A stretch of DNA of 64,000 nt, from contig CBDFJG010000003.1 of the NCBI GenBank assembly GCA_965248445.1, forward strand, positions 800,001 to 864,000, read 5' to 3'. Made by a program: the position numbers and the translations under genes. The notes below the pieces were generated by a model. It was given only the letters and a program-made list of their open reading frames with translations, did no database searches and was not told the DNA's origin. Positions 47,001-64,000 of this stretch are shown here, one piece after another. The stretch's first letter is position 1. Each line of letters begins with the position of its first letter. The DNA is from Planctomycetota bacterium. GTDB taxonomy: Bacteria > Planctomycetota > JAJSAM01 > JAJVHW01.

Positions 47001-47238
47001 GAGTCAGCAGCCGCTTGCCGCGATGCCGCGCCCGCAGCGCGACTGTGTACGCCGCCGCGACGTCCTCGAGGGGCGTGAACTCGAGAGTCAGCGTCGCCTG
47101 CGCCGTCGTCGCCGCGTCGCCGTCGTCCACCAGCACCCGCACGTCGATGGGCGCGGCCTCGTCCTGCGCCGAGGCGGCCAGGGGGCAACCGGCCGCAGCG
47201 ACCAAGAAGAGCGCGAGTCCGAGTCTGCAGCGGAACAC
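44008..47238 (-). CDS. Large secreted multidomain protein with HEXXH metallopeptidase motif and jelly-roll domains
   Basis: Signal peptide from GTG 47238; YHELTH...REG; W.VIGPF...GDDDVTLYVNG...L.AG.N.ILV beta-sandwich motif. Confidence 0.75.
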   Translation of the reverse strand: MFRCRLGLALFLVAAAGCPLAASAQDEAAPIDVRVLVDDGDAATTAQATLTLEFTPLEDVAAAYTVALRARHRGKRLLTLDHGPEPPTRTWKKGTKVTYTVPVPLPLGDAIEPPRQLTVHLGFQDPETRKVQPPQNGFPDRSGFAAVALIDLPPLDAVSKGGAQEVLDAASRLATAGQKGMAWRALTAGVRRAVEDGEKYLFRDAMLALGDFAPPPVSVVEQRIVDARIADEKRRYMRQMSGRFFDRKQYHASLAIIDAIGGSLQEEADKAVLGAVNAAARAEKDKWDVRETLLLQITEEEISEADAAVEKRGQSRKLLDTARGWLTKKRYAPARRALQELRFCEKKDLRDESEELLTTLDKTWVADVPPDQAALVSGVVDNPAWGRTATLPMQEFILIGPRALIESISAVSKRRFDVAYVFLTDLFGRVPNPAGDRVTVYFKELWEFSGGTGGGKQINIGNADPERRGSRLDTGLLYHELTHCIDDTKPVLGGWREGLANVGAVFAFEALGQTSDSLHGFDKNLSDFEKDYVARDLAYWRIPNYGPSAGFFLHFVRTYAKRKSGHDWKPLRGFFRDYRDAPVRDGRTTYVARAVAFYLMRHFGEAAFDDLVRFRLPLVESDREAVRLEMSAFADGDRAVRWAEEDVQGFENSPLKRDLVMRRVIEAAEREEHEAARTIARDELGVLFDWRVIGPFATKGTDPGACIFPPQDEIDFAAEYPGKGNICKWRKVTDPGPVSVRSTGWVDVKYAYMDHTASYGLTHVTVPEETPVAFHVRGDDDVTLYVNGDLVEGLRWPGTNSSRGAGWRGPHKMVADGLRLPWTLRAGRNRILVRVRNGGGVAGFSVAVCKPDGSPLPALASDDAAPAVPLHPDPPKRWKPVTKHDFRQKSFTSKLDVAAGRFVVMNKLLSGAATDKRVAWRKYTVRPGVTKDNPSNLMWLKDKFTKDVDEFRLTMDLVLPIDKAPKMLVTFQGDGGTDGLSGWNLILHSGGKKVLRAELERYQRLFHQCPPVDLAEAETRKLVLTYHDRRLTVWLGTALVLDRVPVRPIAGQTRIGIATWGPDPKFASFQLDVPRR

Positions 47239-49328: not shown

Positions 49329-49757
49329 CTAGTTCGACTGAGGCGCGAGACCGCGCTCGGCGTACAGCTCGCTCTCGGCGCGCCCCCAGTCGGCGCGGGC
49401 GTTGCCCGCACGGCGGCCGCCGTCGATCCAGAGCTGGTGCGCGCGAGCGCGAATCTCGCTCGCGCTGGGAGGCAGAGCGACGGCTTTCTTCGCCGCCTTC
49501 TTGACCGTGGGGGCCTTCTTGATCGTGGCGGCTCTCTTGACCTCGGTGGTGCGGGCGGTCTTGCGCTTCGGCGCCGCCGTCTTCTTCGTCGTGCTCGCCC
49601 TGCGCGCAGCCGGCGACGCCTTCTTGGCGGCCGTCGCCTTCTTCGCGGGAGCTACCTTCTTCGCGGTGACGCGCTTGGCCTTGGGCTTCGCCGCGAGGCC
49701 GCGCTTCGCGGTGCTCTTCGAGTTCTTCTTCGTCGGGTTCTTCTTCTCTGGCGCCAT
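49329..49757 (-). CDS. Histone-H1-like Lys/Ala-rich protein with C-terminal DUF2934-like domain
   Basis: ATG 49757 after GAGGAG; repeated AKK/KKA; C-terminal EIRARAHQLW..GG...G....DW..AE.EL. Confidence 0.8.
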   Translation of the reverse strand: MAPEKKNPTKKNSKSTAKRGLAAKPKAKRVTAKKVAPAKKATAAKKASPAARRASTTKKTAAPKRKTARTTEVKRAATIKKAPTVKKAAKKAVALPPSASEIRARAHQLWIDGGRRAGNARADWGRAESELYAERGLAPQSN

Positions 49758-49985
49758 TTCACTCTCTCCTCGGTCGCTTCCGGCGACCTTCAGCTTGGTT
49801 ACGACCTCGTGGGATTGCGCACCACCGGAAGTGCGCAGAATTGAATGTCTCGCAGGGTCCCGGGAAGGACTTCCGGGGACGCGCCCGCGACAACCCCGCA
49901 TTGGATCGCACCGCACGGTGGACGCTCAGCAAACCCTGCGCGAAATGGTGGGGAATTCGCGGATTCCTGCCGCCCCCGCACGCCG

Positions 49986-51206
49986 TCAGCCAGCGTGGAG
50001 CTGCAGGTCGCGGACGATGATCTCTGACATCTCGAGGCAGGTCCCGAGGTGCGGGTGGCGGACCACGAGATAGCCGTCGGAGAGCAGGGTCGCACGCCAG
50101 TTCCGGCGGGGTGCCCCGACGGGCAGCAGCTCGAGGGAGCAGATGTGCTCGCCGAAGCGGGCGAGCACGCTCGAGAGCCCCTCGATGCGCTGGATCCGCC
50201 CCTCGCCGTGGGCTCGCTTCACGATCTGGCAGACGTTCCAGCGGCGCTCGACCGGCTGGCTGATGCGGCCGTGGCAGACCGCCTCGGCCCACGCCGTGAA
50301 TCCGTCGAAGTCACATGAGTAGTTCATGATGTCCACGGACCGCGCGCCGGGCGGACGGCAGCCGATCTCGCCGAACACGGCCTCGCCGGAGGGCTTCAGG
50401 AACCACTCCATGTGCGTGAATCCGTCTCGATAGCCGAGCGCTTCGAGCACGCCGAGGCCGAGGTCCAAGCCTGGCCGCAGGGGTCCCGCGCCGGGCTCGC
50501 GCAGCGCGACCATGCGCGGACTCACCCACTCGTGGGAGCGCGCGATCAGTGGCCGAGGCAGGTACCAGGTCATGTTGTGGTACAGCGGGCGGCCGTCGGC
50601 GCAGATCGTGTCGAACGTGTACTCCTCGCCGTCGATGAACTCCTCGACGCTCACCTCGGGCACGTGCTGGGTCATCTTCAGCACACGTTCGAGATCGTCG
50701 GGCCCGTCCACGCGGTGCGTGTCGGCGGATCCGGCGCCGGCGATCGGCTTCACGATCAGCGGGTAGCCGATCTCCTCGGCGCCGGCGCGCACCTCTGCCT
50801 GCGTGACGGCACGGCGGTGGCGCGGCGTCCGGAGTCCCGCCTCGTCCAGCACGCGCTTCATGACTTCCTTGTCTCGGAAGGGAATCGTCTGCTCGTAGCT
50901 CATGCCCGGCAGCCCGAGCGCGTCGCGAAGTCGCGCGGCCAGGAACATGCCCGGCTCCCAGAGGCACTCGACGCGGTCGATGCCGCGGGCGCCAGGCCAG
51001 CTGCGCACGGTGTCGACCATCGACTCCTCGTCCCACAGGTTGCCCACCTGCCGGTAGTCGGCCAGCGAGTCGCGCGCCATCTCGGGCAGCGCACCCGCCG
51101 GTGAATCGCCTACGCCGACGACCTCCGCACCGACCGCGGCGAGCCCGCGGCAGAAGAACGGCATCTCGGAGGGGTAGCCCGGGGAGATGAACAAGACGCG
51201 CATCAC
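49986..51206 (-). CDS. ATP-grasp ligase (paralogue A)
   Basis: Motifs RDKEVMK, GYPLIVKPIAGAGS, EEFIDGEE, HMEWF, EIGCRPPG. Confidence 0.92.
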   Translation of the reverse strand: MMRVLFISPGYPSEMPFFCRGLAAVGAEVVGVGDSPAGALPEMARDSLADYRQVGNLWDEESMVDTVRSWPGARGIDRVECLWEPGMFLAARLRDALGLPGMSYEQTIPFRDKEVMKRVLDEAGLRTPRHRRAVTQAEVRAGAEEIGYPLIVKPIAGAGSADTHRVDGPDDLERVLKMTQHVPEVSVEEFIDGEEYTFDTICADGRPLYHNMTWYLPRPLIARSHEWVSPRMVALREPGAGPLRPGLDLGLGVLEALGYRDGFTHMEWFLKPSGEAVFGEIGCRPPGARSVDIMNYSCDFDGFTAWAEAVCHGRISQPVERRWNVCQIVKRAHGEGRIQRIEGLSSVLARFGEHICSLELLPVGAPRRNWRATLLSDGYLVVRHPHLGTCLEMSEIIVRDLQLHAG

Positions 51207-52432
51207 ACGACCTCCACCTGTATGCGGGACACCAGGCGGCCGAGCGCCTCGTGGACGACCGCGGTCTCGGGGTGGCGCACGATCGCGAAGCCCTCGCCCT
51301 CGTACGCCGTGGTGGTCGGTTGTCCGGGCACCGGCAGCCGGGCTTCCACGACGTCCACGCCGAGGTCAGCCAGGCCTCGCTGCGCGTCCTCTAGGCCGTG
51401 GAGCGCCTTCACCCGGCCGCTGCCCTGCCCCCGGAAGAACGCCGCGCCGGTCGAGTAGCGCCGCTCGGGCGTCTGGAATGACCCGTGCACGACCACCCGG
51501 GCCCATGCGGAGAAGAGGTCGAACTCGTTGGCGTAGGAGTGGAGCGGCACGAGCTGTGCGCCCGGCGGCCGCATGGCGATCTCGGAGATCGCGAGCGACC
51601 CGTCCGGCCGCCGGAACCACTCCATGTGCGTGATCCCGGTGTCCATGCCGAGCGCCGCAAGCGCGCGCGCAGCGGCCGACCGGATGTCGTCGTACCGGGG
51701 ATGCTCGACCTCGCGCGGGACGAGCACGCACCACTGGATCCACGGGTTCTCGACCACTTGCAACGGCGTCGGTAGATAATGGCTGAGACCGTGCCACACG
51801 TGGCGGCCGCCGATCGATAGGGTCTCGAACGAGTACTCGTCGCCCTGCACGAACTCCTCGAGCAGCGCGTCGCGGCCGGGGGCCGGGCGCAACACGCGCA
51901 GCGCATCCGCAAGCTCCGCTTCGTTCTGCGCGCGGAACGTCGCCTTGGCGCCCGCGCCGGCGGGCGGTTTGACGACGAGCGGGAACCCGACCTCGCGCGC
52001 GAACGCGAGCGCCTCCTCCGCCGAGGACGCGCTGCGGTGCCGCGCGCACGGCAGGCCGGCCTGCTCGAAGACGGTCTTCATGCGCGCCTTGTCGCGGAAG
52101 TTCGCCGCCACTTCCGGGGACGCGCCGGGGATGCCGAGAGCGGCCCGCACCTCGGCGATCGCTTCCTGGAGTTGCTCGAGGGTCGCGAGCAGGCGCTGCG
52201 GCGGCCCGCCCATCTTGCGCGCGATCGCACGCACGCCGTCCGCCAGGGTCTGAGCGTCGAACGCGCTCTCCACCTGGTGGTGCGCGACGAGGCGGGACCG
52301 CAGGTCCTCCGGGAGCCTCTCGGCCGGCTGCATCGCCACGACGCCGAGCCGGACTCCAGGTACCGCAGCCACGGCCCTCACGAAGCGCAGCGAGATGCGC
52401 ACCGCGAAAGGCAGGACGAAAACGACGTTCAC
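51203..52432 (-). CDS. ATP-grasp ligase (paralogue B)
   Basis: Motifs RDKARMK, GFPLVVKPPAGAGA, EEFVQGDE, HMEWF, EIAMRPPG; GTG 52432. Confidence 0.92.
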   Translation of the reverse strand: MNVVFVLPFAVRISLRFVRAVAAVPGVRLGVVAMQPAERLPEDLRSRLVAHHQVESAFDAQTLADGVRAIARKMGGPPQRLLATLEQLQEAIAEVRAALGIPGASPEVAANFRDKARMKTVFEQAGLPCARHRSASSAEEALAFAREVGFPLVVKPPAGAGAKATFRAQNEAELADALRVLRPAPGRDALLEEFVQGDEYSFETLSIGGRHVWHGLSHYLPTPLQVVENPWIQWCVLVPREVEHPRYDDIRSAAARALAALGMDTGITHMEWFRRPDGSLAISEIAMRPPGAQLVPLHSYANEFDLFSAWARVVVHGSFQTPERRYSTGAAFFRGQGSGRVKALHGLEDAQRGLADLGVDVVEARLPVPGQPTTTAYEGEGFAIVRHPETAVVHEALGRLVSRIQVEVV

Positions 52433-52584
52433 CGAGTCCAAGCGCCCCCTCCAAGCTACCGCTGCGCCATCGGGAAGCACTTTTCCCGGGCGTGCGGGGC
52501 CGAATCCAGCCCAGACTAGCGCCGCCCACGACCCGCGCCACTATCGGCGCGGGCGGAGGCACCGGGAGGCGAGCGCGTAGGACC

Positions 52585-53856
52585 ATGCACGGAGTGGTGA
52601 CGGTGATCCTGGGGGGCGGGCGCGGATCGCGCCTGCAGCCGCTAACCGCCGAGCGTGCCAAGCCCGCCGTGCCGTTCGGCGGGAAGTTCCGGCTGATCGA
52701 CATTCCGATCAGCAACAGCCTCCACGCCGGAATCTCGCGCATCTACGTCCTCACGCAGTACGCGAGCGCCACACTTCACAGCCACATCTCGGGCACGTAT
52801 CGCTTCGACCACTTCGGCAGCGGCGCCGTCGAGATCCTCGCGGCCGAGGAGAGCCTGACGAGCCGCGAGTGGTATCAGGGGACCGCGGACGCCGTCCGCC
52901 AGAACCTTCGCTACATCACCGACCGCCGGCCGGACGAAGTGCTGATCCTCTCGGGCGACCAGCTCTACCTGATGGACGTGCGCGCGATGGTCCAGCGACA
53001 CCGCGACCTCGCTGCCGACTTCTCCATCGCGGTGAAACCGGTCGCGCGGAGCATCGCTCACGGTCTCGGCATCATGCGCGTGGACGAGACGGGACGGATC
53101 GTTGCATTCGTAGAGAAGCCCACGGACGAGAGCGTGCTCGACGAGTTCGAGCTTCCCGACGCCGTGCTGGAGAAGCTCGGCATCCCGCCGCAGCGCGGTC
53201 TCGTGCTGGCGAGCATGGGGATCTATCTGTTCCGCGCTGGCGTGCTCTGCAACCTGCTCGCAAATCCGGGCGTCGACTTCGGCAAGGAGATCATCCCGGC
53301 CGCGCTCGCGGAGCATCGCGTGCAGGCGTTCGCACACACCGGCTACTGGGAGGACATCGGGACGATCGGGGCGTTCCACCGCGCGAGCATCGCGCTGACG
53401 CGCCCGCTACCGCCACTCAACCTGTACAGCCGCGACCGGCCGATCTACACGAACCCGCGCTTCCTGCCCGGCACCAAGATCAACAGCTGCACCGTCAAAC
53501 AGTCGATCCTGTGCGAGGGGAGCATCCTGACGGACAGCACGATCCGCCACTCGATCGTGGGCATCCGTGCGCTCGTGCGCGAGGGCGCGGTCATCGAGAA
53601 CTCGGTCGTGATGGGAGCTCGCTTCTACGAGCCAGAAACCGATCCCCCGCCCGGCGTCGTCGCCCAGGGGATCGGGAAGAACTGCGTCATCCGCAAGGCG
53701 ATCATCGACCTCGACGCGCGCATCGGCGACGGCGTGAAGCTGGTCAACGAGGCCGGCGTGCTGGAAGCCGACGCCGAGGACAGCTCGTGGTGCATCCGCG
53801 AGGGCGTGATCGTCGTGCCCCGCGCGGCCACGATCGCGCCGGGGACCGTGGTCTAG
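52585..53856 (+). CDS. glgC: Glucose-1-phosphate adenylyltransferase
   Basis: Motifs GGGRGSRL..LT..RAKPAV, WYQGTADAV, EKP, DFGKEIIP; C-terminal beta-helix. Confidence 0.97.
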   Translation: MHGVVTVILGGGRGSRLQPLTAERAKPAVPFGGKFRLIDIPISNSLHAGISRIYVLTQYASATLHSHISGTYRFDHFGSGAVEILAAEESLTSREWYQGTADAVRQNLRYITDRRPDEVLILSGDQLYLMDVRAMVQRHRDLAADFSIAVKPVARSIAHGLGIMRVDETGRIVAFVEKPTDESVLDEFELPDAVLEKLGIPPQRGLVLASMGIYLFRAGVLCNLLANPGVDFGKEIIPAALAEHRVQAFAHTGYWEDIGTIGAFHRASIALTRPLPPLNLYSRDRPIYTNPRFLPGTKINSCTVKQSILCEGSILTDSTIRHSIVGIRALVREGAVIENSVVMGARFYEPETDPPPGVVAQGIGKNCVIRKAIIDLDARIGDGVKLVNEAGVLEADAEDSSWCIREGVIVVPRAATIAPGTVV

Positions 53857-53861
53857 CTCCC

Positions 53862-55304
53862 ATGCGCGTCGCGATGACGTCGGCAGAGGTTGCGCCGTTC
53901 GCAAAAACCGGCGGGCTGGGTGACGTCGCCGTATCGCTCGGCCGCTACCTGCACGAGCATGGACACGAAGCCCGGCTGTTCCTGCCACTGTACGGCAATC
54001 TACGGACCGGCCGCGACACGCTGGTGCCCGTCGAGTTCATGCAGGGCATCCCGATCCGGCTGGGCGCGCGCGAGTTCACGATCTCGCTCTTCACGGCACC
54101 CGTGCCCGGCACGTCGTTCTGGGTGTACTTCATCTCGTGCCCCCCGCTCTACGCGCGGCGCTCGATCTATTGCATGGACGGCGACGAGCACCTGCGCTTC
54201 GGGTTGCTGTCGGTCGCGACGCTCGTCGCCTGTCAGCGCATGGCGTTCGCGCCTGACATCGTGCACGTACACGACTGGCACACCGCCCTGACGCCGCTGT
54301 TCCTGCGCACGCACTTCGAGTGGGACCAGCTGTTCGCGAACACGAAGACCGTCCTGACGCTGCACAACCTGGCGTATCAGGGGATGTTTCCCGCAGACGT
54401 CCTGCCGGAGCTCGGCTTGCAGGAGTTCGCCGGCAAGTTCGAGATGCAGGATCTCGCCGCGGGGCGCGTCGGCTTCATGAAGACAGGCATCCTGTACGCG
54501 GATGCCGTGACGGCCGTCAGCGAGACGTACGCCCGCGAGATCCGCCGGCCCGAGCACGGCCTGGGCCTGGACGGGCTGCTGCGTGCGCGCGCTGCGTCGG
54601 TGCACGGGATCACGAACGGCGTGGATTACTCGGTGTGGTCGCCCGAGAAGGACGAGCTGATCCCGCATCGGTTCTCCGCGGACGACCTCTCGGGCAAGGC
54701 GAAGTGCAAGCGGCACCTGGTCGAGACGCTCGGCATGAAGTACGACAAGGATGCGCCCGTCGTGGGGATCGTGTCGCGGCTGACGTCCCAGAAGGGCTTC
54801 GAACTCACGGTCGACGCGCTGCCGATCATGCTGCGCGATAGCCCGGCCCAGCTCGTCGTGCTCGGATCGGGTGAGCCGAAGCTCGAGCAGTTCTTCGCCG
54901 CGCTAGAGCGCCGCTTCCCGGAGAAGGCGCGGTTCATCAACCGCTACGACAACGAGGCCGCCCACCTGATCGAGGCCGGCGCCGACATGTTCCTGATGCC
55001 GTCGCTGTTCGAGCCGTGCGGGCTGAACCAGATGTACAGCCTGCGCTACGGCACCGTCCCCATCGTGCGCCGGACCGGCGGCCTGGCCGACACCGTGGAC
55101 CTGTACGACCCCGAGACGGGAGAGGGCACGGGCTTCGTCTTCGACCACTTCACGAAGGCCGGCTTCAGCTGGGCCCTCGACCAGGCGTTCACGGTCTGGG
55201 AGGACAAGAAAGCGTGGCGCCGCCTGCAGAGGAACGGCATGGCGCGCGACTTCTCCTGGGACCGCCAGGTCACGAAGTACGTCGCGCTCTACGAGTCGCT
55301 GTGA
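53862..55304 (+). CDS. glgA: Glycogen synthase (GT5)
   Basis: Motifs KTGGLGDV, HDWH, HNLAYQG, SRL..QKG, PSLFEPCGLNQ. Confidence 0.97.
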   Translation: MRVAMTSAEVAPFAKTGGLGDVAVSLGRYLHEHGHEARLFLPLYGNLRTGRDTLVPVEFMQGIPIRLGAREFTISLFTAPVPGTSFWVYFISCPPLYARRSIYCMDGDEHLRFGLLSVATLVACQRMAFAPDIVHVHDWHTALTPLFLRTHFEWDQLFANTKTVLTLHNLAYQGMFPADVLPELGLQEFAGKFEMQDLAAGRVGFMKTGILYADAVTAVSETYAREIRRPEHGLGLDGLLRARAASVHGITNGVDYSVWSPEKDELIPHRFSADDLSGKAKCKRHLVETLGMKYDKDAPVVGIVSRLTSQKGFELTVDALPIMLRDSPAQLVVLGSGEPKLEQFFAALERRFPEKARFINRYDNEAAHLIEAGADMFLMPSLFEPCGLNQMYSLRYGTVPIVRRTGGLADTVDLYDPETGEGTGFVFDHFTKAGFSWALDQAFTVWEDKKAWRRLQRNGMARDFSWDRQVTKYVALYESL

Positions 55305-55570
55305 AGGCTGCGGCGCTGCCGCTTCTCCTCGCCACGCTGACGAGCTGCGCCTCTCTCGAACCGCTGCGCCCCATCGAACCCCGCGCACGCGACTCGCTGC
55401 CGACACAGGCTCTCAAGGGGATCGCCTACGTGCCGGCGGCGCTCGTTCTCGGGACCGGCGTGCTCGCGGCGGACATCGCCTGCGGCGTGGCCCGCCAACG
55501 AGCCGAGGAGGTCGCCGTCGACGAGGAGCTCGGACGGCCGGAGCGCGACATGCGGCGGCAGATCTACTGA
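55301..55570 (+). CDS. Small putative lipoprotein
   Basis: GTG overlaps the glgA stop; (M)KAAALPLLLATLTS-C lipobox-like; second hydrophobic segment. Confidence 0.55.
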   Translation: MKAAALPLLLATLTSCASLEPLRPIEPRARDSLPTQALKGIAYVPAALVLGTGVLAADIACGVARQRAEEVAVDEELGRPERDMRRQIY

Positions 55571-55580
55571 CCTGCGCCCT

Positions 55581-56339
55581 CTAGCACAGCTTCTTGAGGT
55601 ACTTCGGGAGCATCTCGCGCCACGTCGGCCAGTTGTGGTCGTAGTCCTTGCCCCACTGATCGACGCGGTTGGGGATGCCGCGGCTGCCGAGGACCTTGGC
55701 CAGGCGCCACGACTGGGCCGGCTCTTCCCACGGACCGTCGCCGGTCGGCAGGTACGCGGTGCGCGTGCGCAACAGCTTCAGCTGCTCGGACTCGTCGTCC
55801 AGTCGCGGGAGGAAGTGCATCGGCGACGAGAGGCAGAAGTCCATCGGATACGGCGGTTCGAGCCACTTCGTCATGTCGTACGTGCCGCTCATCCCGATCG
55901 CGGCCTTGAAGACGTCGGGGTGCTTGCAGAGCGCGGCGACTGCGTTGAACGCGCCGATGGACGCGCCCGCCGTGATGATCTCGATGTCCGGGCTCTCGCA
56001 GTCGTGCCGGATCCAGGGGACCAGCTCGTGCCGGATGAACCGGTCGAAACGGGCCTGCGCCGCGGCGTAGCTCGCGGTCGTGCGCCCCTCCGCCGACATC
56101 GCGCGGCCGCCGATCGAGTCGCACGAGTAGACCTTGATGCGGCCCGCGTCGAGCAGCGGACGCAGCACGTAGATCATCTTGAAGCGCTCTTGCTCCTCAC
56201 CGTCGCCACCGGCCGTCGGGAAGAGCAGCACGGGCGTGCCCATGTGGCCCCACCGCGCGCACAGCACCTCTTCGCCCGCGTGCTGCGACTGCATGCGAAC
56301 GGTTGTCTTCCTGTCTCTGTTCGTGTCCGTGCCCGTCAC
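55581..56339 (-). CDS. Alpha/beta-hydrolase (putative esterase)
   Basis: Motifs WGHMGTPVLLFPT, nucleophile elbow GASIG, SGTYD, HNWPTW. Confidence 0.88.
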   Translation of the reverse strand: MTGTDTNRDRKTTVRMQSQHAGEEVLCARWGHMGTPVLLFPTAGGDGEEQERFKMIYVLRPLLDAGRIKVYSCDSIGGRAMSAEGRTTASYAAAQARFDRFIRHELVPWIRHDCESPDIEIITAGASIGAFNAVAALCKHPDVFKAAIGMSGTYDMTKWLEPPYPMDFCLSSPMHFLPRLDDESEQLKLLRTRTAYLPTGDGPWEEPAQSWRLAKVLGSRGIPNRVDQWGKDYDHNWPTWREMLPKYLKKLC

Positions 56340-57580
56340 GTCTGTGCCTCCTCGTCCCGCCAACGCTGAATCGCCTGCCAGAACTTCTCGGTGAACTCGT
56401 CGATCTCGTGCGCCGGGTAGAGCGACTCGACTTTCGCGCGCACGAATCCGTGCGCCTCGTCGCCGCCGAAGAACTCCCACGCGACCTCGTCCAGGTCGCC
56501 GAGATGCTCTCCGCAGAACTCCTCGAAGCGCGCTGTGTCCAGCCGTTCGTCGGCGATGCCCGCGTACCCGCTGAGCCGCTCGCGGTACGACAGCCCCTCC
56601 TCGGCGGCGATCTCGTAGTACGCACCCCAGTCGAGGTTCTTCCGCATCTCGCGCCCGGTGGCCGCCACGAAAATCGACCAGCGGAGCTTCGCGAGAACGA
56701 GCCATGGGAAGTGGTAGTGGAGCGACGTGACCTGGGAGTCGGGACACGCGTTCGCGAAATCGATCGGGTGGAACACTCCGTCCTGCCGGAGCATCTCGCA
56801 GGAGTTGAAGTCCCAGCCGAAGAAGCTGTTGATCGTCAACGTCATGTCGCGCAGTAGCGAGAGCTCGTCGCCGGTGACGTCCGGCGCCTCCTCGCAGTAC
56901 CGTCCGTGCAGCGGCGCTGACGGGTCGTACTTCACTGCACGCACCTGTGGGCCGACGCCGACACACCGCACGAACAGATCGTGCGGGAGCACGGCCTTCT
57001 GCAGGAACATCAGCCGCTTGCCGCTCTTCTCGTACGCAGCGCGCAACTGCTCTTCGTCGTCGATGCGCGTGACACCGACCCATGCGCCGCCGTCATACGG
57101 CTTCATGAACAACGGATAGCCGATCTCGCTTCCTACTTCGCCGATGTCGAAGAGCTTCGCGTAGCGCTTCAGCGTGACCTCGAGATCGGGGGTCGACCAG
57201 TCGTACTCCTTCGGCGGCACCAACCACGTCTCGGGGACGGGCATGCCGAGGCGCATCATCGCCGCGTACGTGGTCTGCTTCTCCATCGACTGGATCGACC
57301 ACGGGTTGTTCAGGACGTACAGGTCGTCGACGAGGATCGCCTTCTTGATCCACTCGCGCGAGAGGTGGTACCAGTGCGTGACGCGGTCGAGCACGACGTC
57401 GTAGCGCGACGGCGCGCTCAGGTCGAACGGATCGATCTGCATACGCGAAGCCGCCAGACGCACGGTGTCGCCGCCGATCCGGATGCGCGGATCCAGACGT
57501 TTCAAGATGGTCTCGTAGCACGCCGGCCAACAGAGGTCGGCTCCCAGAGAGAGACCGATTCTCTTCGTGATCTCCGCCAT
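56336..57580 (-). CDS. RimK/glutathione-synthetase-like ATP-grasp ligase
   Basis: Motifs LNNP, P.TWLVPPK, GYPLFMKPYDGGAW, FNSCEM, IDFAN..PD. Confidence 0.88.
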   Translation of the reverse strand: MAEITKRIGLSLGADLCWPACYETILKRLDPRIRIGGDTVRLAASRMQIDPFDLSAPSRYDVVLDRVTHWYHLSREWIKKAILVDDLYVLNNPWSIQSMEKQTTYAAMMRLGMPVPETWLVPPKEYDWSTPDLEVTLKRYAKLFDIGEVGSEIGYPLFMKPYDGGAWVGVTRIDDEEQLRAAYEKSGKRLMFLQKAVLPHDLFVRCVGVGPQVRAVKYDPSAPLHGRYCEEAPDVTGDELSLLRDMTLTINSFFGWDFNSCEMLRQDGVFHPIDFANACPDSQVTSLHYHFPWLVLAKLRWSIFVAATGREMRKNLDWGAYYEIAAEEGLSYRERLSGYAGIADERLDTARFEEFCGEHLGDLDEVAWEFFGGDEAHGFVRAKVESLYPAHEIDEFTEKFWQAIQRWRDEEAQT

Positions 57581-57643
57581 GAACGCGCTCCATCCCGGCA
57601 GGGCATCCGCCGACACTTCGGCGCGCTCTCGGCGGGGAATCCC

Positions 57644-58783
57644 CTATTCGTACACGAGTCCGAGCGGCCCTGGGAAAAGCCAACTGAGGGACTCCCGAAG
57701 GCGGTCCCGCCAGTTCTCCCAGTTGTGCCCGTCGCGGGACTCACGGTAGCGGACTCGCATGCCGCTTTGCGCCAACGGCGTCTGGAGCGCACGGTTATCC
57801 GCGATCAGGGACTCGTAGCGGCCGCAGGTGACGAAGACCCGCTCCGCCACGGCGGCGGGATTCTCGCGGTACGCGTTCACGAACTCGACCACCGGCCCGA
57901 GGGCCGGGTGGAACTCTTCGTAGCCCGTGTCGTTGAAGCGGAACGAGCCTGACTGGAGGAGCAGCTTCCCGAACGTCCCCGGGTGCTTCCAGGCCGTCCA
58001 CAGGGCGGCGACCGCCCCGAGGCTGGCTCCCATCAATCCACGGTCGGACGGGTCATCGAGAAGCGGTAGCTGTGAGCTCAGTCCTGGCAGCAGTTCCTCG
58101 GCCACGAAGCGGGCGTGGTCGTCGCTCGCGGTGTAGTCGGTGAAGCGGTCGGGGGACTGGCTGAGGGCGACCACCAGCGGAGGGATCTCGTACCGGTGGA
58201 TCAGGTTGTCCAGCACAGTCTCGAGGTCGCAGTACTTCCGGTAGTCCTCGCCGTCGAAGGCGACCAGGAGCGGGTACCGGCGGGTCTTCTGGAGCCGGGC
58301 CGGCAGGTAGACGCGCACCTCGACGTCGGCGTCGTGGGTGTCGGAACGGACCGTCATCGTCTCGAGCGTGCCCCGCCGCGCCTCGGAGTCGGGCAGGGTC
58401 CAGTCCGGCCGCTGGTAGCCCTCGCCGTAGCACACGGAGTTCAGGCCGTAGGGATCGCGCGCCGTGTTCGGGTTCAGCGGATCCAGCGTCAGGCGGGGGT
58501 GGCTCCCCGCGTGCACCTCGAGCTTGTACTCGATGCGAGAACCCGGCGGGATCTCCATGGTCAGGAACCAGAGGTCGGTGCCTTCGATACGCAGGAACGG
58601 CTGCAGGCTCGGGAAGCCCATGATGAAGTGCCGCAGGCGCACGTCGTCGGCCTCGCCACGGTACAGGTACGTCACCGAGTGCCCCTCGACGAGCGGACAC
58701 GCGATGCGCCCGAGGAACGCGTCGACAGCAGCGGCGTCCGGAGCCGCGTCGCCCTCCATCAGCCGGTGAATCGCGAGGCTCAC
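57644..58783 (-). CDS. Fes-like esterase with N-terminal E-set/CBM48-like domain
   Basis: N-terminal VTYLYRG...LW......G..IEYKL....DPLNP; C-terminal VYLP, GASLG, GHNW..W. Confidence 0.88.
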   Translation of the reverse strand: MSLAIHRLMEGDAAPDAAAVDAFLGRIACPLVEGHSVTYLYRGEADDVRLRHFIMGFPSLQPFLRIEGTDLWFLTMEIPPGSRIEYKLEVHAGSHPRLTLDPLNPNTARDPYGLNSVCYGEGYQRPDWTLPDSEARRGTLETMTVRSDTHDADVEVRVYLPARLQKTRRYPLLVAFDGEDYRKYCDLETVLDNLIHRYEIPPLVVALSQSPDRFTDYTASDDHARFVAEELLPGLSSQLPLLDDPSDRGLMGASLGAVAALWTAWKHPGTFGKLLLQSGSFRFNDTGYEEFHPALGPVVEFVNAYRENPAAVAERVFVTCGRYESLIADNRALQTPLAQSGMRVRYRESRDGHNWENWRDRLRESLSWLFPGPLGLVYE

Positions 58784-59751
58784 GGCGTGCCTCCGGCGAC
58801 GCCTTTCACTTCGGTCAGCTCCGTCACGCGGCCATCGGTGCGCAGGCGGCGGGCGCCGTCCCCGAAGAGCGTCCAACCCTCGCCCGTGCCGCCCCAGATC
58901 AGCCCGGACGCGTCGTCGAGCGCAACGCACGTCCGGGGTGCGAAGCGGCGCGCGAACAGCGCGACGCTCTCCCGGTCGTCGAGCCGCATGCGACGCGAAG
59001 CGTGGGGAAGCGCGACCACGCGGGGGCAGAGCCCCAGCCCGCTCTCGAGGGTCAGCGGGAGGCCGGGACCCTGCGGGGCGTTCTCGTGGTAGATGACGAT
59101 TTGCTTGCATGCGCACATCGCGCCGGCCGACCAGGCGAACAGTGGTCGCTCGCCGATCTGGGCCGCGATGTCGAACAGCCTGAGCCGGTTGCGCAGCACC
59201 GCCACGTGTCCTCCGGCGAACGCCACCGAACGGCAGTCCGCCAGGAGCTCGGAAACCCGCCCCCGCTGGACCACCACGCTTTCCCGCTCCGCCGGACGGA
59301 CGGCGTCCTCGAACTCGGCGTGGAGCTCCTCGGCACGGGTGAGGGCGCCGGCGTCGAGGTGCCGCACCTGCTCGAGCGCTTCCTCACGAGCCTGCTCGTC
59401 GAGGTCCTGCATGAGAGGGTCCGAGGACGGTCCCGGGAGGCGTCGAAGAGCATCCACCAGGTGGCCCAGCCTCTCTCGGTAGAGCTCCCGGGCGTGCCGG
59501 AGGCGGACGCGGCGCCGCCTCCAGGCTTCGAGAAACTCCGGGTCTCGTTCGAAGATCTGCTCCGTCCGCGCGTGGAGGCGTAAGTTGACGATCTCGTGCC
59601 CGAGGTGCGAGGACAGCTCGTCGATCTCGTCCTCGCGCTCCTCCCAACCGGCGGTGACCGCCGCAACCGGGCCCTCCGCTGCGACATGCCGGAAGGCCTG
59701 CGCCAATGTGGGCTGGTATCGCTGCGGTCCGAGGAGTACGACGGGGGGCAT
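58780..59751 (-). CDS. Peptidase S51-like (class I glutamine amidotransferase-like fold) protein with helical insertion
   Basis: Motifs VTAGW, AGGH, nucleophile WSAGAM, LPH. ATG 59751; stop overlaps the esterase start. Confidence 0.75.
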   Translation of the reverse strand: MPPVVLLGPQRYQPTLAQAFRHVAAEGPVAAVTAGWEEREDEIDELSSHLGHEIVNLRLHARTEQIFERDPEFLEAWRRRRVRLRHARELYRERLGHLVDALRRLPGPSSDPLMQDLDEQAREEALEQVRHLDAGALTRAEELHAEFEDAVRPAERESVVVQRGRVSELLADCRSVAFAGGHVAVLRNRLRLFDIAAQIGERPLFAWSAGAMCACKQIVIYHENAPQGPGLPLTLESGLGLCPRVVALPHASRRMRLDDRESVALFARRFAPRTCVALDDASGLIWGGTGEGWTLFGDGARRLRTDGRVTELTEVKGVAGGTP

Positions 59752-59805
59752 CGCCGGGCATCGTAGCGACGCGTTCGCCGGAGAGTGCGCGCAAGGAGAG
59801 CGAAC

Positions 59806-61026
59806 ATGCATGTGATCTTCATCGAGCCCCGTTTCCCCGTGAACCAGCGCGAATTCGTGCGCGGACTCCGCGAAGCCGGAGCCGTGGTCACGGGCATCGG
59901 AGAGTCGCCCCTGGGGGCGATGGACCCCGAACTGAAGAGCTGGATGGTCGGCTACGAGCAGGTGCCGTCCGTGTGCCACGAGGAGTCGCTGCTGGAGGCC
60001 GTGCGCACCGTGCAGAAGCGCGGGTGGGTGGACCGGCTGGAGACGACGGTCGAAGCGCACATCCTGCCGGCGGCCAAGGTGCGCGAGGCGTGCGGAATCC
60101 CGGGAACGTCGGTCCGCACCGCTTTCCTCTGCCGCGACAAACCCGCGATGAAGGACGCGCTGCGTGAGGCGGGAGTGCCGACCGCGCAGTCGATCGGGAG
60201 TGACTCGCAAGACGACATTCGCGCGTTCGTCAAGCAAGTCGGCTACCCGGTGATCGTAAAGCCGCGGGGCGCCGCAGGCGCCGCGGGAACGTACCGGGCA
60301 GACGACGACGACGAGCTGTCGCGCGTTCTGACCGAGTGCGGAGTCGGGAAGGGCGCTGACGTCGCCGTCGAGGAGTTCGTGGAGGGTCACGAGGGCTTCT
60401 ACGACACGCTGACGGCCGGTGGCCGCATCGTGCACGAGTTCGTCTCTCACTACTACCCAAACGTGCTGCACGCGATGCGGACGCGGTGGATCTCGCCGCA
60501 GATCATCGTGACGAACCGCGTCGAAGCCTCGAGCTACGACGAGCTCCGTCAGCTCGGCAACGAGGTGAACAAGGCGCTCGGGATCGAGACGTCGGCGACC
60601 CACATGGAGTGGTTCTACGGCCCGAAGGGACTGAAGTTCTCGGAGATTGGCTGCCGCCCCCCGGGTGTCAGCGTCTGGGACCTCTACAGCGCCGCGAACG
60701 AGTTCGACATCTACCGCGAGTGGGGCCATCTGATCGTCGACGGGGAGCCGCGGCAGCGCCGCTCACTGCGCTTCTCGACCGGGATGCTCAACCTGCGCCC
60801 GGAGGCCGACGGCACGATTGCGGGCTACGACGGACTCGAGCAGGCGATGGAGCGGCACGGGGAGTGGATACTCGACCACCACATCCCGCCGGCCGGCTCC
60901 CCCACGGCGCCGATCGCGGGCGGGTACAAGGTCAACGCCTGGATGCGACTCCGCCACTCGGACTACGACGAACTTCGCAGGATCATGACGGACATCGGCG
61001 AGACGGTGAAGGTCAGGGTGCGCTGA
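59806..61026 (+). CDS. ATP-grasp ligase (paralogue C)
   Basis: Motifs RDKPAMK, GYPVIVKPRGAAGA, EEFVEGHE, HMEWF, EIGCRPPG; RBS AAGGAG. Confidence 0.92.
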   Translation: MHVIFIEPRFPVNQREFVRGLREAGAVVTGIGESPLGAMDPELKSWMVGYEQVPSVCHEESLLEAVRTVQKRGWVDRLETTVEAHILPAAKVREACGIPGTSVRTAFLCRDKPAMKDALREAGVPTAQSIGSDSQDDIRAFVKQVGYPVIVKPRGAAGAAGTYRADDDDELSRVLTECGVGKGADVAVEEFVEGHEGFYDTLTAGGRIVHEFVSHYYPNVLHAMRTRWISPQIIVTNRVEASSYDELRQLGNEVNKALGIETSATHMEWFYGPKGLKFSEIGCRPPGVSVWDLYSAANEFDIYREWGHLIVDGEPRQRRSLRFSTGMLNLRPEADGTIAGYDGLEQAMERHGEWILDHHIPPAGSPTAPIAGGYKVNAWMRLRHSDYDELRRIMTDIGETVKVRVR

Positions 61027-61055
61027 CCGGATCTCCCGCCGCGCGATTGCACTCC

Positions 61056-63050
61056 ATGCGATTCGAACGTGATCTCTGTTTGAACCTCACCGCCGCGCTC
61101 GGCCGTCACTGGCTGGAGACCGATGGACGTGGTGCCTACGCGTCCTCGACTGTCCTCGCCGTGCCGACGTCACGCTTCCATGGCTTGCTCGTGGCGCCTT
61201 CGCAGGAGCAGCCCGAACGCCACGTGTTCGTGTCGCGCTGCGAGGAGACATTCCGCGGGGACGGGCGAGAGTTCCCGATCTCGGATGCGCAGTTCCCCGG
61301 ATCGCTGCACCCGGGCGGCCACCGTTTCCTCAACGCGTTCGACCTCGACCCGACCGCCGCGGACCCTAATCCGCGCTACACGTACCGCATAGGACACGTG
61401 GTCGTGACCCGCGAGATCCGCATGCTGCGCGACCGTCCCGTCACGCTCGTGCGGTACACGGCCACCGGACAGCGCAAGCCAATCCAGCTCGGGCTGCGGC
61501 CGTTCCTGCCGTGCCGCCGGGCCGACGCGCTCACGTGGGTCAACGACAGCGTCGACGAGGGCGTGCGGTCCGTCGAGCGGGGAATCGTGTCACGCCCGTA
61601 CGAGGCGCTGCCCGAAGTCGCTCTGACGATCTCCCGCCAGGCCGCGTTCGCACGGAGTCCGAAATGGGTACGCGGGATCGAGTACGCGGACGATCTCGCG
61701 CGCGGCTACGACGGTCACGAGGACCTGTGGTCACCCGGAGAGTGGAGCGTTCCGCTCGAGTCGGGGGAGGATGTCGTGCTCGCCCTGACCATCGGCGAAC
61801 CGGTCGGCGATCCGGGCGGGGCGTGGCGGGCCGCCGCCCAACTCGCCGAGCCCGCGGGCAACGCTGAGGGCGTGCGGGCGACGCTCGAGGCCGCCTGCGA
61901 CCACTATCTCTACCGCGACCGGGACGGGCGCCCGGGAGTCATCGCCGGCTTCCCGTGGTTCGGCGAGTGGGGCCGCGACTCTCTGATCGCGCTGCCGGGG
62001 CTCACGCTTGCCCGAGGGGAGATCAAGGCATGCGGCGACGTGCTGACGGGGATGCTGCCCTGGTTGCGCGACGGCCGTCTCCCGAATGTGTTCGGCCCCA
62101 CGCCGGAGGCCAGCGACTACAACAAGGCCGTCGATCCCGCGATGTGGTTCGGCCGCGCCGTGCGGCTCTACGCGGACGCCGGCGGCGACGAGTCGCGCGT
62201 GCGCGACGTGCTCCTGCCCGCCCTGCTGGAGATCGGCGAGGCCCACCGGGGCGCCCGCGGCGACACGCTGATGTGTGACGGTGATGGCCTCCTGTTCGCT
62301 GGATCGGCGGACGTTGCGGCCACATGGATGGACGCCGTCGTCGACAACCGCCCTGTGACGCCGCGCAACGGCGCTCAGGTCGAGGTGAACGCGCTCTGGT
62401 ACGTGCTCGCGGACACGCTCGCGAACTTGCTGGAGGGATCCCCCGCCGCGGAGTGGTCCGGCTTCCGCGATCGTCTCGGTGAGGCGTTCCTGCGCCGATT
62501 CTGGCTTGAGCGGCGCAATCGGCTCGCGGACGTCCTGACGACGACCGGCGAGGACGACAGCGTCCGGCCGAATATGGTGATCGCGGCGGCTCTCGAACCG
62601 TCGCCTCTGAGCGCGGAGCAGCGCGCGACGGTCGCCGACCTTGCCCGTGCCGAGCTGCTGACGCCGTTCGGACTGCGCACGCTCTCGCCGCGCTACCTTC
62701 ACTACCGCGGCCGCTTCGAGGGCGATCAGGTTGCGCGCGACGACGCCTACCATCAGGGCACGGTGTGGCCGTGGCTCCTGGGCTTCTTCGTCGAGGCGGA
62801 ACTGCGCGGGCTCGGCCGGTCGCCGGAACTGGTCACGCGGCTCCGCGGCCTCCTGGACGGCTTCGCGACGCACCTCGGCGAGCACGGGCTCGGCCACGTC
62901 TCGGAGGTCTTCGACGGCGATCCGCCGCACCGCCCCGGCGGCTGCTTCGCGCAGGCGTGGAGCGTGGCCGAGATCGTCAGGGCGTACAGTCTGCTGGACG
63001 CGGACACTGGGCTGCTGGACGTGGACGAAACAGGGAGCGGTGCGGCATGA
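61056..63050 (+). CDS. Glycogen debranching enzyme, amylo-alpha-1,6-glucosidase type (GDE_N + GDE_C)
   Basis: Motifs WLETDGRGAYASST, IAGFPWFGEWGRD, TWMDA, VEVNALW, AYHQGTVWPW, QAWSVAE. Confidence 0.93.
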   Translation: MRFERDLCLNLTAALGRHWLETDGRGAYASSTVLAVPTSRFHGLLVAPSQEQPERHVFVSRCEETFRGDGREFPISDAQFPGSLHPGGHRFLNAFDLDPTAADPNPRYTYRIGHVVVTREIRMLRDRPVTLVRYTATGQRKPIQLGLRPFLPCRRADALTWVNDSVDEGVRSVERGIVSRPYEALPEVALTISRQAAFARSPKWVRGIEYADDLARGYDGHEDLWSPGEWSVPLESGEDVVLALTIGEPVGDPGGAWRAAAQLAEPAGNAEGVRATLEAACDHYLYRDRDGRPGVIAGFPWFGEWGRDSLIALPGLTLARGEIKACGDVLTGMLPWLRDGRLPNVFGPTPEASDYNKAVDPAMWFGRAVRLYADAGGDESRVRDVLLPALLEIGEAHRGARGDTLMCDGDGLLFAGSADVAATWMDAVVDNRPVTPRNGAQVEVNALWYVLADTLANLLEGSPAAEWSGFRDRLGEAFLRRFWLERRNRLADVLTTTGEDDSVRPNMVIAAALEPSPLSAEQRATVADLARAELLTPFGLRTLSPRYLHYRGRFEGDQVARDDAYHQGTVWPWLLGFFVEAELRGLGRSPELVTRLRGLLDGFATHLGEHGLGHVSEVFDGDPPHRPGGCFAQAWSVAEIVRAYSLLDADTGLLDVDETGSGAA

Positions 63051-64000
63051 GGGTTCTCGTACTGGGTTGGGAGTTTCCGCCGCACATCTCGGGCGGGCTG
63101 GGGACGGCCTGCCAGGGTCTCGTGGAGGGTCTCGTCTCCAACGGCGCCGACGTCACCGTCGTCCTGCCACGCGTCCACGGCGACGAGGCTGCCGGCGACG
63201 CGCGGATCGTCGACTGCGGTGTGCCCGAGAGTCCGCACCGCGAGGTGACCCTGGACGCCGCGCTGCTGCCGTACCTGACGGCGGAGCAGTACACACGGCT
63301 CGCCGAGCGCACCGGTCGTTCAGGCGAGTTCGGCGAGGACCTGTTCGCGGAGGTCGGCCGCTACGCGCGCGCCGTTCCAGCACACGTCGAGGGAACGTAC
63401 GACGTCGTGCACGCGCACGACTGGATGACGTTTCCGGCAGGAGCAGCGACAGCCAACAAGCTGGGCATCCCGCTCGTGCTGCACGTGCACTCGTGCGAGT
63501 ACGACCGCGCAGGCGATCAGGCGCACCCGCGCATTCTCGCTGTGGAACAGAAGGGGCTGGACGCCGCGGACCGCGTGATCTGCGTGAGCCGGTACACCGC
63601 GAACCAGCTCCGCGAGCGCTACGACGTCGATGCGAACAAGGTGCGCGTCGTCCACAACGCCGTCAGCGACTCCGGGAGCCCCGTCGTGCGCAAGCCGCAG
63701 ACGCGGCTCGACGAACCGATCGTCCTGTTCATGGGCCGTGTCACCGCCCAGAAGGGGCCGACCTACTTCCTCGAGGCCGCTGCGCTGGTCGCCCGGGAGC
63801 TGCCGAGCGTGAAGTTCGTGCTGGCCGGCGGAGGCGACATGCTCTCCGCGATGATCGAACGAGCGGCCGAGCTGGGACTCGCACGGCACGTGCACTTCAC
63901 GGGGTTCCTGCGGGGCCCCGAGGTGGACCGCATGTACGACGAGGCGTCCGTGTTCGTGATGCCGTCGGTCTCCGAGCCCTTCGGCATCGCGCCACTCGAG
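63047..64000 (+). CDS. GT4 glycosyltransferase, glycogen-synthase-like (runs off window edge)
   Basis: Not in the ORF track because it has no stop inside the window. ATG 63047 overlaps the GDE stop; MRVLVLGWEFPPHISGGLGTAC, HAHDW, GRVTAQKGP, PSVSEPFGI. Confidence 0.92.
   Translation, partial: MRVLVLGWEFPPHISGGLGTACQGLVEGLVSNGADVTVVLPRVHGDEAAGDARIVDCGVPESPHREVTLDAALLPYLTAEQYTRLAERTGRSGEFGEDLFAEVGRYARAVPAHVEGTYDVVHAHDWMTFPAGAATANKLGIPLVLHVHSCEYDRAGDQAHPRILAVEQKGLDAADRVICVSRYTANQLRERYDVDANKVRVVHNAVSDSGSPVVRKPQTRLDEPIVLFMGRVTAQKGPTYFLEAAALVARELPSVKFVLAGGGDMLSAMIERAAELGLARHVHFTGFLRGPEVDRMYDEASVFVMPSVSEPFGIAPLE

Follow-up and report, generated by a model that had tools for sequence, protein, structure and literature searches.

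An ATP-grasp ligase and hydrolase module coupled to the glycogen synthase gene glgA in a Planctomycetota genome and across bacterial phyla

Few bacterial polymers have been studied as well as glycogen, the pathway of which is regarded as complete. We report here that a 64-kb stretch of a Planctomycetota genome (the window, G000:C3:800001-864000; source genome G000, 5.4 Mb, 92% complete) holds one copy of a conserved seven-gene module inside the sole glycogen-synthesis locus of the cell. The module consists of four ATP-grasp ligases (A, B, C and D), two esterases (est1 and est2) and an S51-like protein, and it is genetically coupled to the glycogen synthase GlgA in many phyla. These seven enzymes, 50-77% identical across at least 10 phylum-level groups and found repeatedly in the glgA operon, point to a hitherto unrecognised covalent modification of glycogen or to an equally unrecognised amino-acid-based companion compound.

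Recurrence of the module and its linkage to glgA

Related loci were collected with two anchors. For the C-anchored sample, one genome per species was searched with ligase C, and the best 80 of at least 580 relatives were taken; the D-anchored sample comprised 80 metagenome contigs. C is 58-77% identical across the 80 C-anchored loci, which are labelled as Planctomycetota, Acidobacteriota, Myxococcota, Actinomycetota, Gammaproteobacteria, Alphaproteobacteria, Gemmatimonadota, Dormibacterota, Eisenbacteria and Krumholzibacteriota (at least 10 phylum-level labels), those closest to the window carrying Planctomycetota labels. The carriers include the cultured Acidobacteria bacterium Mor1 (L031) and the genera Sandaracinus, Microlunatus and Actinoplanes. 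Searches of the C-anchored loci by tblastn with the window proteins revealed orthologues of est2 in 67, of the S51-like protein in 59, of D in 55, of est1 in 50, of B in 46 and of A in 45. All seven genes were present in 25 of the 80 loci, and in 19 of the 43 that extend at least 8 kb on both sides. Where A and B do not lie beside C, a B orthologue was found elsewhere in the genome in five genomes out of five, in one of them adjoining glgA. The D-anchored loci repeat the string S51-like > est2 > D > est1.

All-against-all clustering of the 1108 genes called in the 80 C-anchored loci, made for recurrent families, gave no further family in more than 9 loci. The next most frequent families were glgC, a phosphorylase fusion, GlgB, MalQ, a GCS2 ligase, a PGM1-like ATP-grasp protein and an AstE/AspA-type deacylase; among the glycogen genes, glgC was near the module in 13 loci, the phosphorylase fusion in 9, GlgB in 5 and MalQ in 3. 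Neither exporter, regulator and precursor-supply genes nor the tailoring, resistance and export genes typical of antibiotic clusters recurred in these 80 loci. The GCS2-type carboxylate-amine ligase adjoins the module in five Actinomycetota and Dormibacterota loci, once fused to CBS domains (examples of this gene or its neighbour are L078:1833-2963, L085:6282-7244 and L070:14509-16422), and proC adjoins it in the Dormibacterota loci. The PGM1-like ATP-grasp protein and the AstE/AspA-type deacylase each occur in four loci. A slimmer module, in which the S51-like gene is absent and est2 has no ...VYE tail (see below), was observed in Acidimicrobiia, in some gammaproteobacterial-type loci and in several unlabelled metagenome contigs (L048, L070, L072, L084, L076, L132, L144, L165 and L170).

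The glgA gene in the window is the sole GT5-type GlgA gene of genome G000. Of all 160 loci, 59 have a true GlgA no more than 10 kb from the module, and in 36 it stands between module genes on both sides. Counted by sample, 35 of the 80 C-anchored loci have a GlgA (at least 40% identity), as do 24 of the 80 D-anchored ones; among the 27 D-anchored loci at least 12 kb long, the number is 15. GlgA adjoins a module gene in 32 and 24 loci, respectively, and is enclosed by module genes in 24 and 12. Moreover, in 26 of 80 loci, which come from seven labelled groups, C directly follows a co-directional GlgA gene, the aligned ends being 2-99 nt apart. With the only GT5 glgA of the genome inside the module, and a GlgA within 10 kb in those 59 loci, chance falls far short of explaining the arrangement. 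As for Actinomycetota loci, a search for another glucan synthase in place of GlgA yielded no convincing candidate other than a GlgC-like gene that adjoins C in L079.

At the genome level, a match to TIGR02095 was found in 46 of 50 module-bearing genomes versus 9 of 14 named controls, and the cluster-linked GlgAs in other genomes score 400-560 bits against this model. Among 301 sampled Planctomycetota genomes, 58 have D and 205 have GlgA. GlgA occurs in 52 of the 58 D-positive genomes, and in 39 of the 40 whose D is at least 55% identical, versus 153 of 243 D-negative genomes; these counts, compared by hand from two tables, are descriptive only because the relatives are not independent. D and GlgA share a contig and lie within 15 kb of each other in at least 15 of these 40 genomes, a lower bound that holds for the GlgA matches listed (81 others stand outside the list).

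An ordinary peptide natural-product cluster could have come to lie in the glycogen locus of this genome by chance. Consistent with this idea, three further ATP-grasp genes past the window end (E, F and G) form a separate unit that is not beside glucan genes in relatives, and the genes for the glycogen debranching enzyme (GDE), GT4 and GH57 accompany the module in just 2-3 of 80 loci. However, loci of different arrangement, from at least seven phylum-level groups and from both independently anchored samples, show the linkage to glgA; in Planctomycetota, D and GlgA tend to occur together; and the genes that mark antibiotic clusters do not recur. Chance adjacency is already contradicted by these synteny counts, and we consider it very improbable.

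The earlier note on this DNA had proposed, from the window, a candidate ligase and hydrolase system tied to glycogen genes, and had suggested looking for recurrent glg linkage of the ligases across phyla. With C and D as anchors, the linkage proved recurrent and wider than the window could show. Among the glycogen partners, GlgA is conserved, whereas GDE, GT4 and GH57 stand beside the module solely in this lineage, in the closest loci. Likewise, its description of C as the first gene of a debranching operon holds here and in L008 and L009, where C heads a tightly packed string of glucan genes, but elsewhere C usually comes right after glgA. In the literature on ATP-grasp ligases and esterases with glycogen synthase, judged from listings, no relevant description of the gene set was found, and the database names of the module proteins are generic, such as "ATP-grasp domain-containing protein."

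Ligases, esterases and the S51-like protein

The seven non-glycogen proteins look catalytically competent. The ATP-grasp columns RDK, KP, EE, HxE and E..R are invariant in A, B and C as well as in E, F and G. Compared with the Protein Data Bank (PDB) directly, C matched the L-amino acid ligase (Lal) 4wd3 (E 3.7e-15) and BacD (E 4e-14), and A and B were placed through their 35-36% identity to C (35% for A); the three are mutually 33-36% identical. By sequence, A, B and C are thus related to the characterised Lals of the BacD/RizA type, enzymes that join two unprotected L-amino acids at the expense of ATP. They have the fold class and motifs of the stand-alone Lals BacD/YwfE, RizA and BL00235 (matches of C from E 4e-15 to 1e-6), but, unlike these, they are three ancient paralogues, each 50-77% conserved across phyla, which lie outside antibiotic clusters and have hydrolases and GlgA as their partners.

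Longer fused forms of C were found as eight database proteins. P0123 (794 aa, GlgA joined to C) was discarded as evidence: it is a single sequence with a GlgA that misses its last ~28 residues and a C cut at residue 296, and it is probably a frameshift artefact because both parts are truncated. P0126 (Actinoplanes digitatis, 766 aa) and P0129 (895 aa), in which C is joined to a PF00756 esterase, are likewise single sequences and were not counted.

Ligase D, with 63% mean column identity over 51 sequences, is barely recognisable as an ATP-grasp enzyme by sequence, and its family cluster has ~8,600 members in the ESM Atlas. Its AlphaFold2 model (pLDDT 90.3, pTM 0.90) matched Ddl, VanA, ArgX/LysX and RimK in Foldseek (E ~1e-10), including the complexes of ArgX with LysW and of RimK with S6, and also an ATP-grasp enzyme of ribosomally synthesised and post-translationally modified peptides. 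Residues K172, E274, D286 and N289 are invariant. All four ligases belong to the ATP-grasp superfamily, D by its predicted fold. D resembles RimK, LysX-ArgX/LysW and the D-Ala-D-Ala and D-Ala-D-Lac ligases in this fold and in the conserved C-terminal Glu of a neighbouring product (est2); it differs from them by an extra helical C-terminal domain of ~120 aa, and identity is 12-17%.

Both esterases keep invariant residues, Ser135 of the GxSxG motif and His243 in 49 sequences of est1, and Ser254 of the GxSxG motif and His353 in est2. Structural comparison used a model of the natural S51-like/est2 fusion, in which residues 222-358 are of low confidence and the matches come from the esterase domain. 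The best match was Fes (Z 34.2, root-mean-square deviation (rmsd) 2.9, 347 aligned residues), ahead of the CBM48-CE1 feruloyl esterases (Z 28, rmsd 4.6-4.8, 318 aligned residues); Foldseek agrees, and BesA and IroE are also among the closest matches. PF02922 (CBM48) gave no match to est2 at E 0.01, though the whole protein aligns to CBM48-CE1 esterases. The "CBM48-like" esterase of the earlier note is therefore better described as Fes-like. Est2 shares the two-domain build and the conserved Ser and His with Fes, IroD/IroE, BesA and the CBM48-CE1 feruloyl esterases, but differs in its ...VYE tail and its S51-like partner, with which it is fused in three species. We know of no Fes-type or CBM48-CE1 esterase with such a C-terminal tail or partner, nor of glucan binding by the N-terminal domain of Fes. 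Siderophore and xylan genes did not recur in the related loci compared (no siderophore scan was made of the window).

The S51-like protein is, by its family profile, a member of the class I glutamine-amidotransferase/S51 fold group, matching PdxT (E 9e-5), peptidase E (7e-3) and, remotely, cyanophycinase (0.73). PF03575 is found in 21-43% of the members of its own-family Atlas clusters. The Ser of its WSAGAM motif aligns with the nucleophile of peptidase E and PdxT, and a helical hairpin insertion of ~120 aa is present. Among 43 members, 39 have this Ser and 30 the His expected from the Ser-His-Glu triad of S51 peptidases (lost in 13), and the copy in the window has both. With a PF03575 score of 23.3 bits, just short of the 23.9-bit cut-off, the window copy is a candidate member of family S51.

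In three Acidimicrobiia loci (L038, L054 and L078), the S51-like protein and est2 form one protein of 735-748 aa, with a Pro/Gly/Ala-rich linker and with the Ser, the His and the est2 tail all kept. Est2 of the window ends in ...FPGPLWMVYE with the stop codon directly after, and a Y-E or Y-D end was found in 56 of 64 copies. The tail was tallied against an S51-like gene directly upstream in 122 est2 copies from the 160 loci. Both were present in 90 copies and both absent in 9; 3 copies have the tail alone (one of them, in L044, has an S51-like open reading frame (ORF) in the gene calls), 3 have the S51-like gene alone, and 17 were not assessable. Furthermore, est2 retains the tail even beside S51-like proteins that lack the putative Ser or His, and D is present in 7 of the 9 modules that have neither tail nor S51-like gene, the other two being short loci that show no D. 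The tail is therefore likely a docking or handle element for the S51-like protein rather than a substrate of D, because D persists in tail-less modules and the tail survives loss of Ser or His. Most likely, the S51-like protein and est2 work as one two-part hydrolase. New here are the S51-like/est2 fusion, the co-occurrence of tail and S51-like protein, the ranking of Fes over CBM48, the fold class of D and the separateness of the E-F-G trio.

These observations also bear on an alternative in which the ligases and the S51-like protein would write and erase amino acids on a protein C-terminus, that of est2 or another such as GlgA, in the manner of RimK on S6, LysX-ArgX on LysW or tubulin tyrosine ligase; this would regulate the esterase or a glycogen enzyme, or make the tail a carrier. 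The conserved Y-E or Y-D end right before the stop codon, the matches of D to the ArgX-LysW and RimK-S6 complexes, the association of the tail with the S51-like gene and the retention of the tail in the three fused proteins are all in line with it. Nevertheless, the tail follows the S51-like protein and not D, so that action of D on the est2 tail is not favoured, and persistence of the tail beside S51-like proteins devoid of Ser or His fits docking better than catalysis. The C-termini of GlgA vary across copies, and this end of GlgA was accordingly rejected as a ligase target. Nor is the module a LysW carrier system, which has a small acidic carrier protein with a terminal Glu: no recurrent small ORF resembling LysW and no LysZ/Y/J/K-type family was found in the 80 loci, and the likeness is limited to the LysX-like fold of D and the terminal Glu of the 379-aa est2. 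A complex prediction of D with est2 from alignments (score 0.00, mark 0.32) speaks neither for nor against binding. Overall, we regard modification of a protein tail as improbable.

Possible products of the module

The reading that we prefer, though tentatively, is that short amino-acid groups are ester-linked to alpha-glucan, giving reversibly aminoacylated or peptidylated glycogen. The ligases would activate the carboxylates of amino acids as acyl-phosphates, and one of them, most likely D, would form an ester to a hydroxyl; D is the likeliest candidate, as the ester-forming ligase VanA is among its structural relatives. The acceptor hydroxyl would most likely be on the alpha-1,4-glucan made by the co-transcribed GlgA. 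The Lal-type A, B and C would then lengthen the ester-linked group to a short peptide, and the est2/S51-like pair and est1 would remove it, with the esterases cleaving the ester and the S51-like protein trimming the peptide. That at least one ester is formed is suggested by the two dedicated esterases together with the ester-forming relative of D. Moreover, the two-domain build common to est2 and the polysaccharide esterases of the CBM48+CE1 type supports glucan decoration, as do the conservation of the module, its linkage to GlgA and to other glycogen genes, the position of C at the head of a string of glucan genes here and in L008 and L009, the retained catalytic residues of the ligases and esterases, and the structural matches of D to VanA and Ddl.

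Mycobacterial methylglucose lipopolysaccharide, an acylated cytoplasmic alpha-1,4-glucan, is a precedent for an ester-decorated intracellular alpha-glucan. Its locus pairs a GT4 glucosyltransferase with GH57, as does the string downstream of C. In contrast to what is proposed here, its acyl groups come from acyl-CoA via acyltransferases, with no ATP-grasp ligase, and GT4 and GH57 accompany the module solely in the lineage of the window.

Several points weigh against glucan decoration. Lal-type enzymes join free amino acids, and Pfam and NCBIfam scans recognised no carbohydrate-binding domain in any of the ligases. The best structural match of est2 is Fes, whose substrate is the amino-acid esters of a small molecule and not a polysaccharide. 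Six of the 58 D-positive Planctomycetota genomes, which are 59-93% complete and three of which have a distant D only, gave no GlgA match. No glgA was present within 10 kb in 45 of 80 C-anchored and 56 of 80 D-anchored loci, many on short contigs, and glgA is outside the cluster in the est1 > C arrangement of loci with gammaproteobacterial labels (e.g., L066, L067 and L071). A shared operon can reflect co-regulation rather than a common substrate. Finally, covalent attachment of amino acids to bacterial glycogen is not known to us, nor did the literature on the subject, judged from listings, describe any.

Nearly as likely as glucan decoration, in our estimate, is that the module makes and mobilises a free amino-acid-based compound (a short peptide, a depsipeptide, an oligo-ester or oligo-amide reserve, or a compatible solute), which would be co-expressed with GlgA as part of a shared storage or stress programme. 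The earlier note had named both a decorated glucan and a separate peptide reserve or solute, and sequence data alone do not tell them apart. Four synthetic against three degradative enzymes follow the logic of a reserve. The nearest relatives point the same way: those of A, B and C are dipeptide-forming Lals, those of est2 (Fes, BesA and IroE) hydrolyse amino-acid esters of small molecules, and the S51-like protein has peptidase E and cyanophycinase among its relatives. Amide-bond enzymes, namely the GCS2, PGM1-like and AstE/AspA-type proteins counted above, recur with the module in other lineages, and many module loci have no adjacent glgA. On the other hand, glgA lies between module genes in 36 of 160 loci and less than 100 nt from C in 26 of 80, exporter, regulator and precursor-supply genes do not recur, and the cross-phylum conservation of C (~60%) and D (~63%) would be unusual for a small-molecule peptide pathway.

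Cyanophycin, with its synthetase CphA and the S51 cyanophycinase CphB, is among the closest comparisons for such a reserve, as it is a non-ribosomal amino-acid compound built by ATP-grasp chemistry, with an S51-type serine hydrolase gene beside the ligases and a logic of storage and mobilisation. However, CphA is one protein of ~870 aa that combines ATP-grasp and Mur-ligase-like domains, whereas no module protein has a Mur-ligase-like domain, and TIGR02068 matches only ~90 residues of module proteins at 29-40 bits versus a cut-off of 850. The S51-like protein is very remote from cyanophycinase and is set apart by its helical insertion and by the His missing from 13 of 43 members, and the two esterases and the GlgA coupling have no counterpart in cyanophycin systems. 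Since the CphA architecture is absent, the module is not a cyanophycin system. The likeness of the module to Lal, Fes and RimK/Ddl enzymes is confined to its individual proteins.

Returning to glucan decoration, its fullest form would extend to the glycogen of hundreds of species in many phyla: the four ATP-grasp ligases would attach amino acids or short peptides to it as esters, and the Fes-like esterase/S51-like complex would strip them off again. We hold this fuller claim to be doubtful. If it is true, such "aminoacyl-glycogen" would be a combined carbon-nitrogen reserve or a charge-tuned granule, and bacterial glycogen would not be pure glucan. Whichever outcome applies, decoration or a companion compound, it would add to what is known of how abundant lineages of soil and sea (Planctomycetota, Acidobacteriota, Gemmatimonadota, Myxococcota and Acidimicrobiia) store carbon and nitrogen, and a function would follow for large families named "ATP-grasp domain-containing" and "putative esterase."

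Gene models and surroundings of the locus

Gene models were derived from an ORF listing and the third-codon-position GC, followed by Pfam and NCBIfam scans; the third-position GC guided the choice of genes because the G+C content of the window is high (~69%). The results confirmed the gene order and strands of the earlier note (Table 1). Its "lipoprotein" is merely an 89-codon ORF with a lipobox-like motif, which has no Pfam family and no tblastn counterpart in 80 related loci, and its membership in the module is doubtful.

Table 1. Genes of the module and of glycogen metabolism in the window
Feature	Position in window	Strand	Basis of assignment
Ligase A, L-amino-acid-ligase-type ATP-grasp, 406 aa	49986..51206	-	Pfam ATP-grasp_3/CPSase_L_D2
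Ligase B, L-amino-acid-ligase-type ATP-grasp, 412 aa	51203..52441	-	Pfam ATP-grasp, 51 bits
glgC, glucose-1-phosphate adenylyltransferase	52585..53856	+	NTP_transferase and LbH_GLGC; NF002772, 532 bits versus cut-off 537 (scored on a longer ORF)
glgA, ADP-glucose glycogen synthase (GT5)	53874..55304	+	TIGR02095, 536 bits (cut-off 328); NF001899, 475 bits (cut-off 459)
Small ORF, 89 aa, lipobox-like LTSC	55301..55570	+	Read from sequence
est1, small PF00756 serine hydrolase, 237 aa	55581..56294	-	Pfam Esterase, 39.8 bits (cut-off 22)
Ligase D, Ddl/RimK/LysX-class ATP-grasp, 412 aa, helical C-terminal domain	56336..57574	-	Weak ATP-grasp by sequence, clear ATP-grasp fold in predicted model
est2, two-domain Fes-like esterase, 379 aa, ...PGPLxxVYE tail	57644..58783	-	Pfam Esterase (PF00756), 80.3 bits (cut-off 22)
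S51-like / class I glutamine-amidotransferase-like protein, 323 aa	58780..59751	-	PF03575, 23.3 bits, just below cut-off 23.9
Ligase C, L-amino-acid-ligase-type ATP-grasp, 406 aa; heads the string C-GDE-GT4-GH57-glycogen synthase/phosphorylase	59806..61026	+	Pfam ATP-grasp; PDB matches
Glycogen debranching enzyme (GDE), archaeal type (GDE_N + GDE_C)	61080..63050	+	PF06202, 304 bits; PF12439, 187 bits
GT4 glycogen-synthase-like glycosyltransferase, runs off the window; ~398 aa from ATG 63047 (428 aa as first called from 62957)	63047..64000	+	Pfam

The genes are closely spaced. A 4-nt GTGA overlap joins the end of B to the start of A, another GTGA overlap is found between the S51-like gene and est2, and the stop codon of GDE overlaps the start of GT4 as ATGA. 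The S51-like gene and C are divergent with a 54-nt spacer between them, and C has an AAGGAG Shine-Dalgarno site 8 nt upstream of its ATG. A PADLOC search for defence systems with 12 proteins gave no match.

The string headed by C runs on past the window end with the rest of GT4, GH57 and a 1410-aa GT3 glycogen synthase/phosphorylase fusion. This fusion, the last gene of the string (L007:3474-7706), consists of a eukaryote-type GT3 glycogen synthase (PF05693), DUF3417 and an alpha-glucan phosphorylase. Together with the GT5 GlgA and GT4, three glucan-synthase-type genes are present at one locus.

On the opposite strand after the fusion are the ATP-grasp genes E, F and G (L007:7737-13052, genome C3:869737-875052), which lie 5.7-11 kb past the window end; a 109-aa ORF of no assigned family and a weakly methyltransferase-like gene come next. 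E and F are of the PF13535 type with a 23-residue insertion, and G is 51% identical to C. F-like genes or the E-F-G unit were found in 10 of the 301 sampled Planctomycetota genomes, and glucan genes are absent for about 8-10 kb around the trio in four relatives from the same family (13.5-20 kb retrieved). The idea that the seven ATP-grasp genes form one system was therefore rejected, as E-F-G is a separate unit that lies away from glucan genes in these four relatives. An IS66-family transposase gene (L007:15570-16514) lies ~2.5 kb beyond the E-F-G block, and it may bear on how the block reached the glycogen locus here.

Upstream of ligase A, two large genes at 44008-47238 (minus strand) and 47575-49242 (plus strand), encoding 1076 and 555 aa, respectively, have a strong coding signal and match no Pfam family. 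Between these genes and ligase A, a DUF2934 protein is encoded at 49329-49901 on the minus strand.

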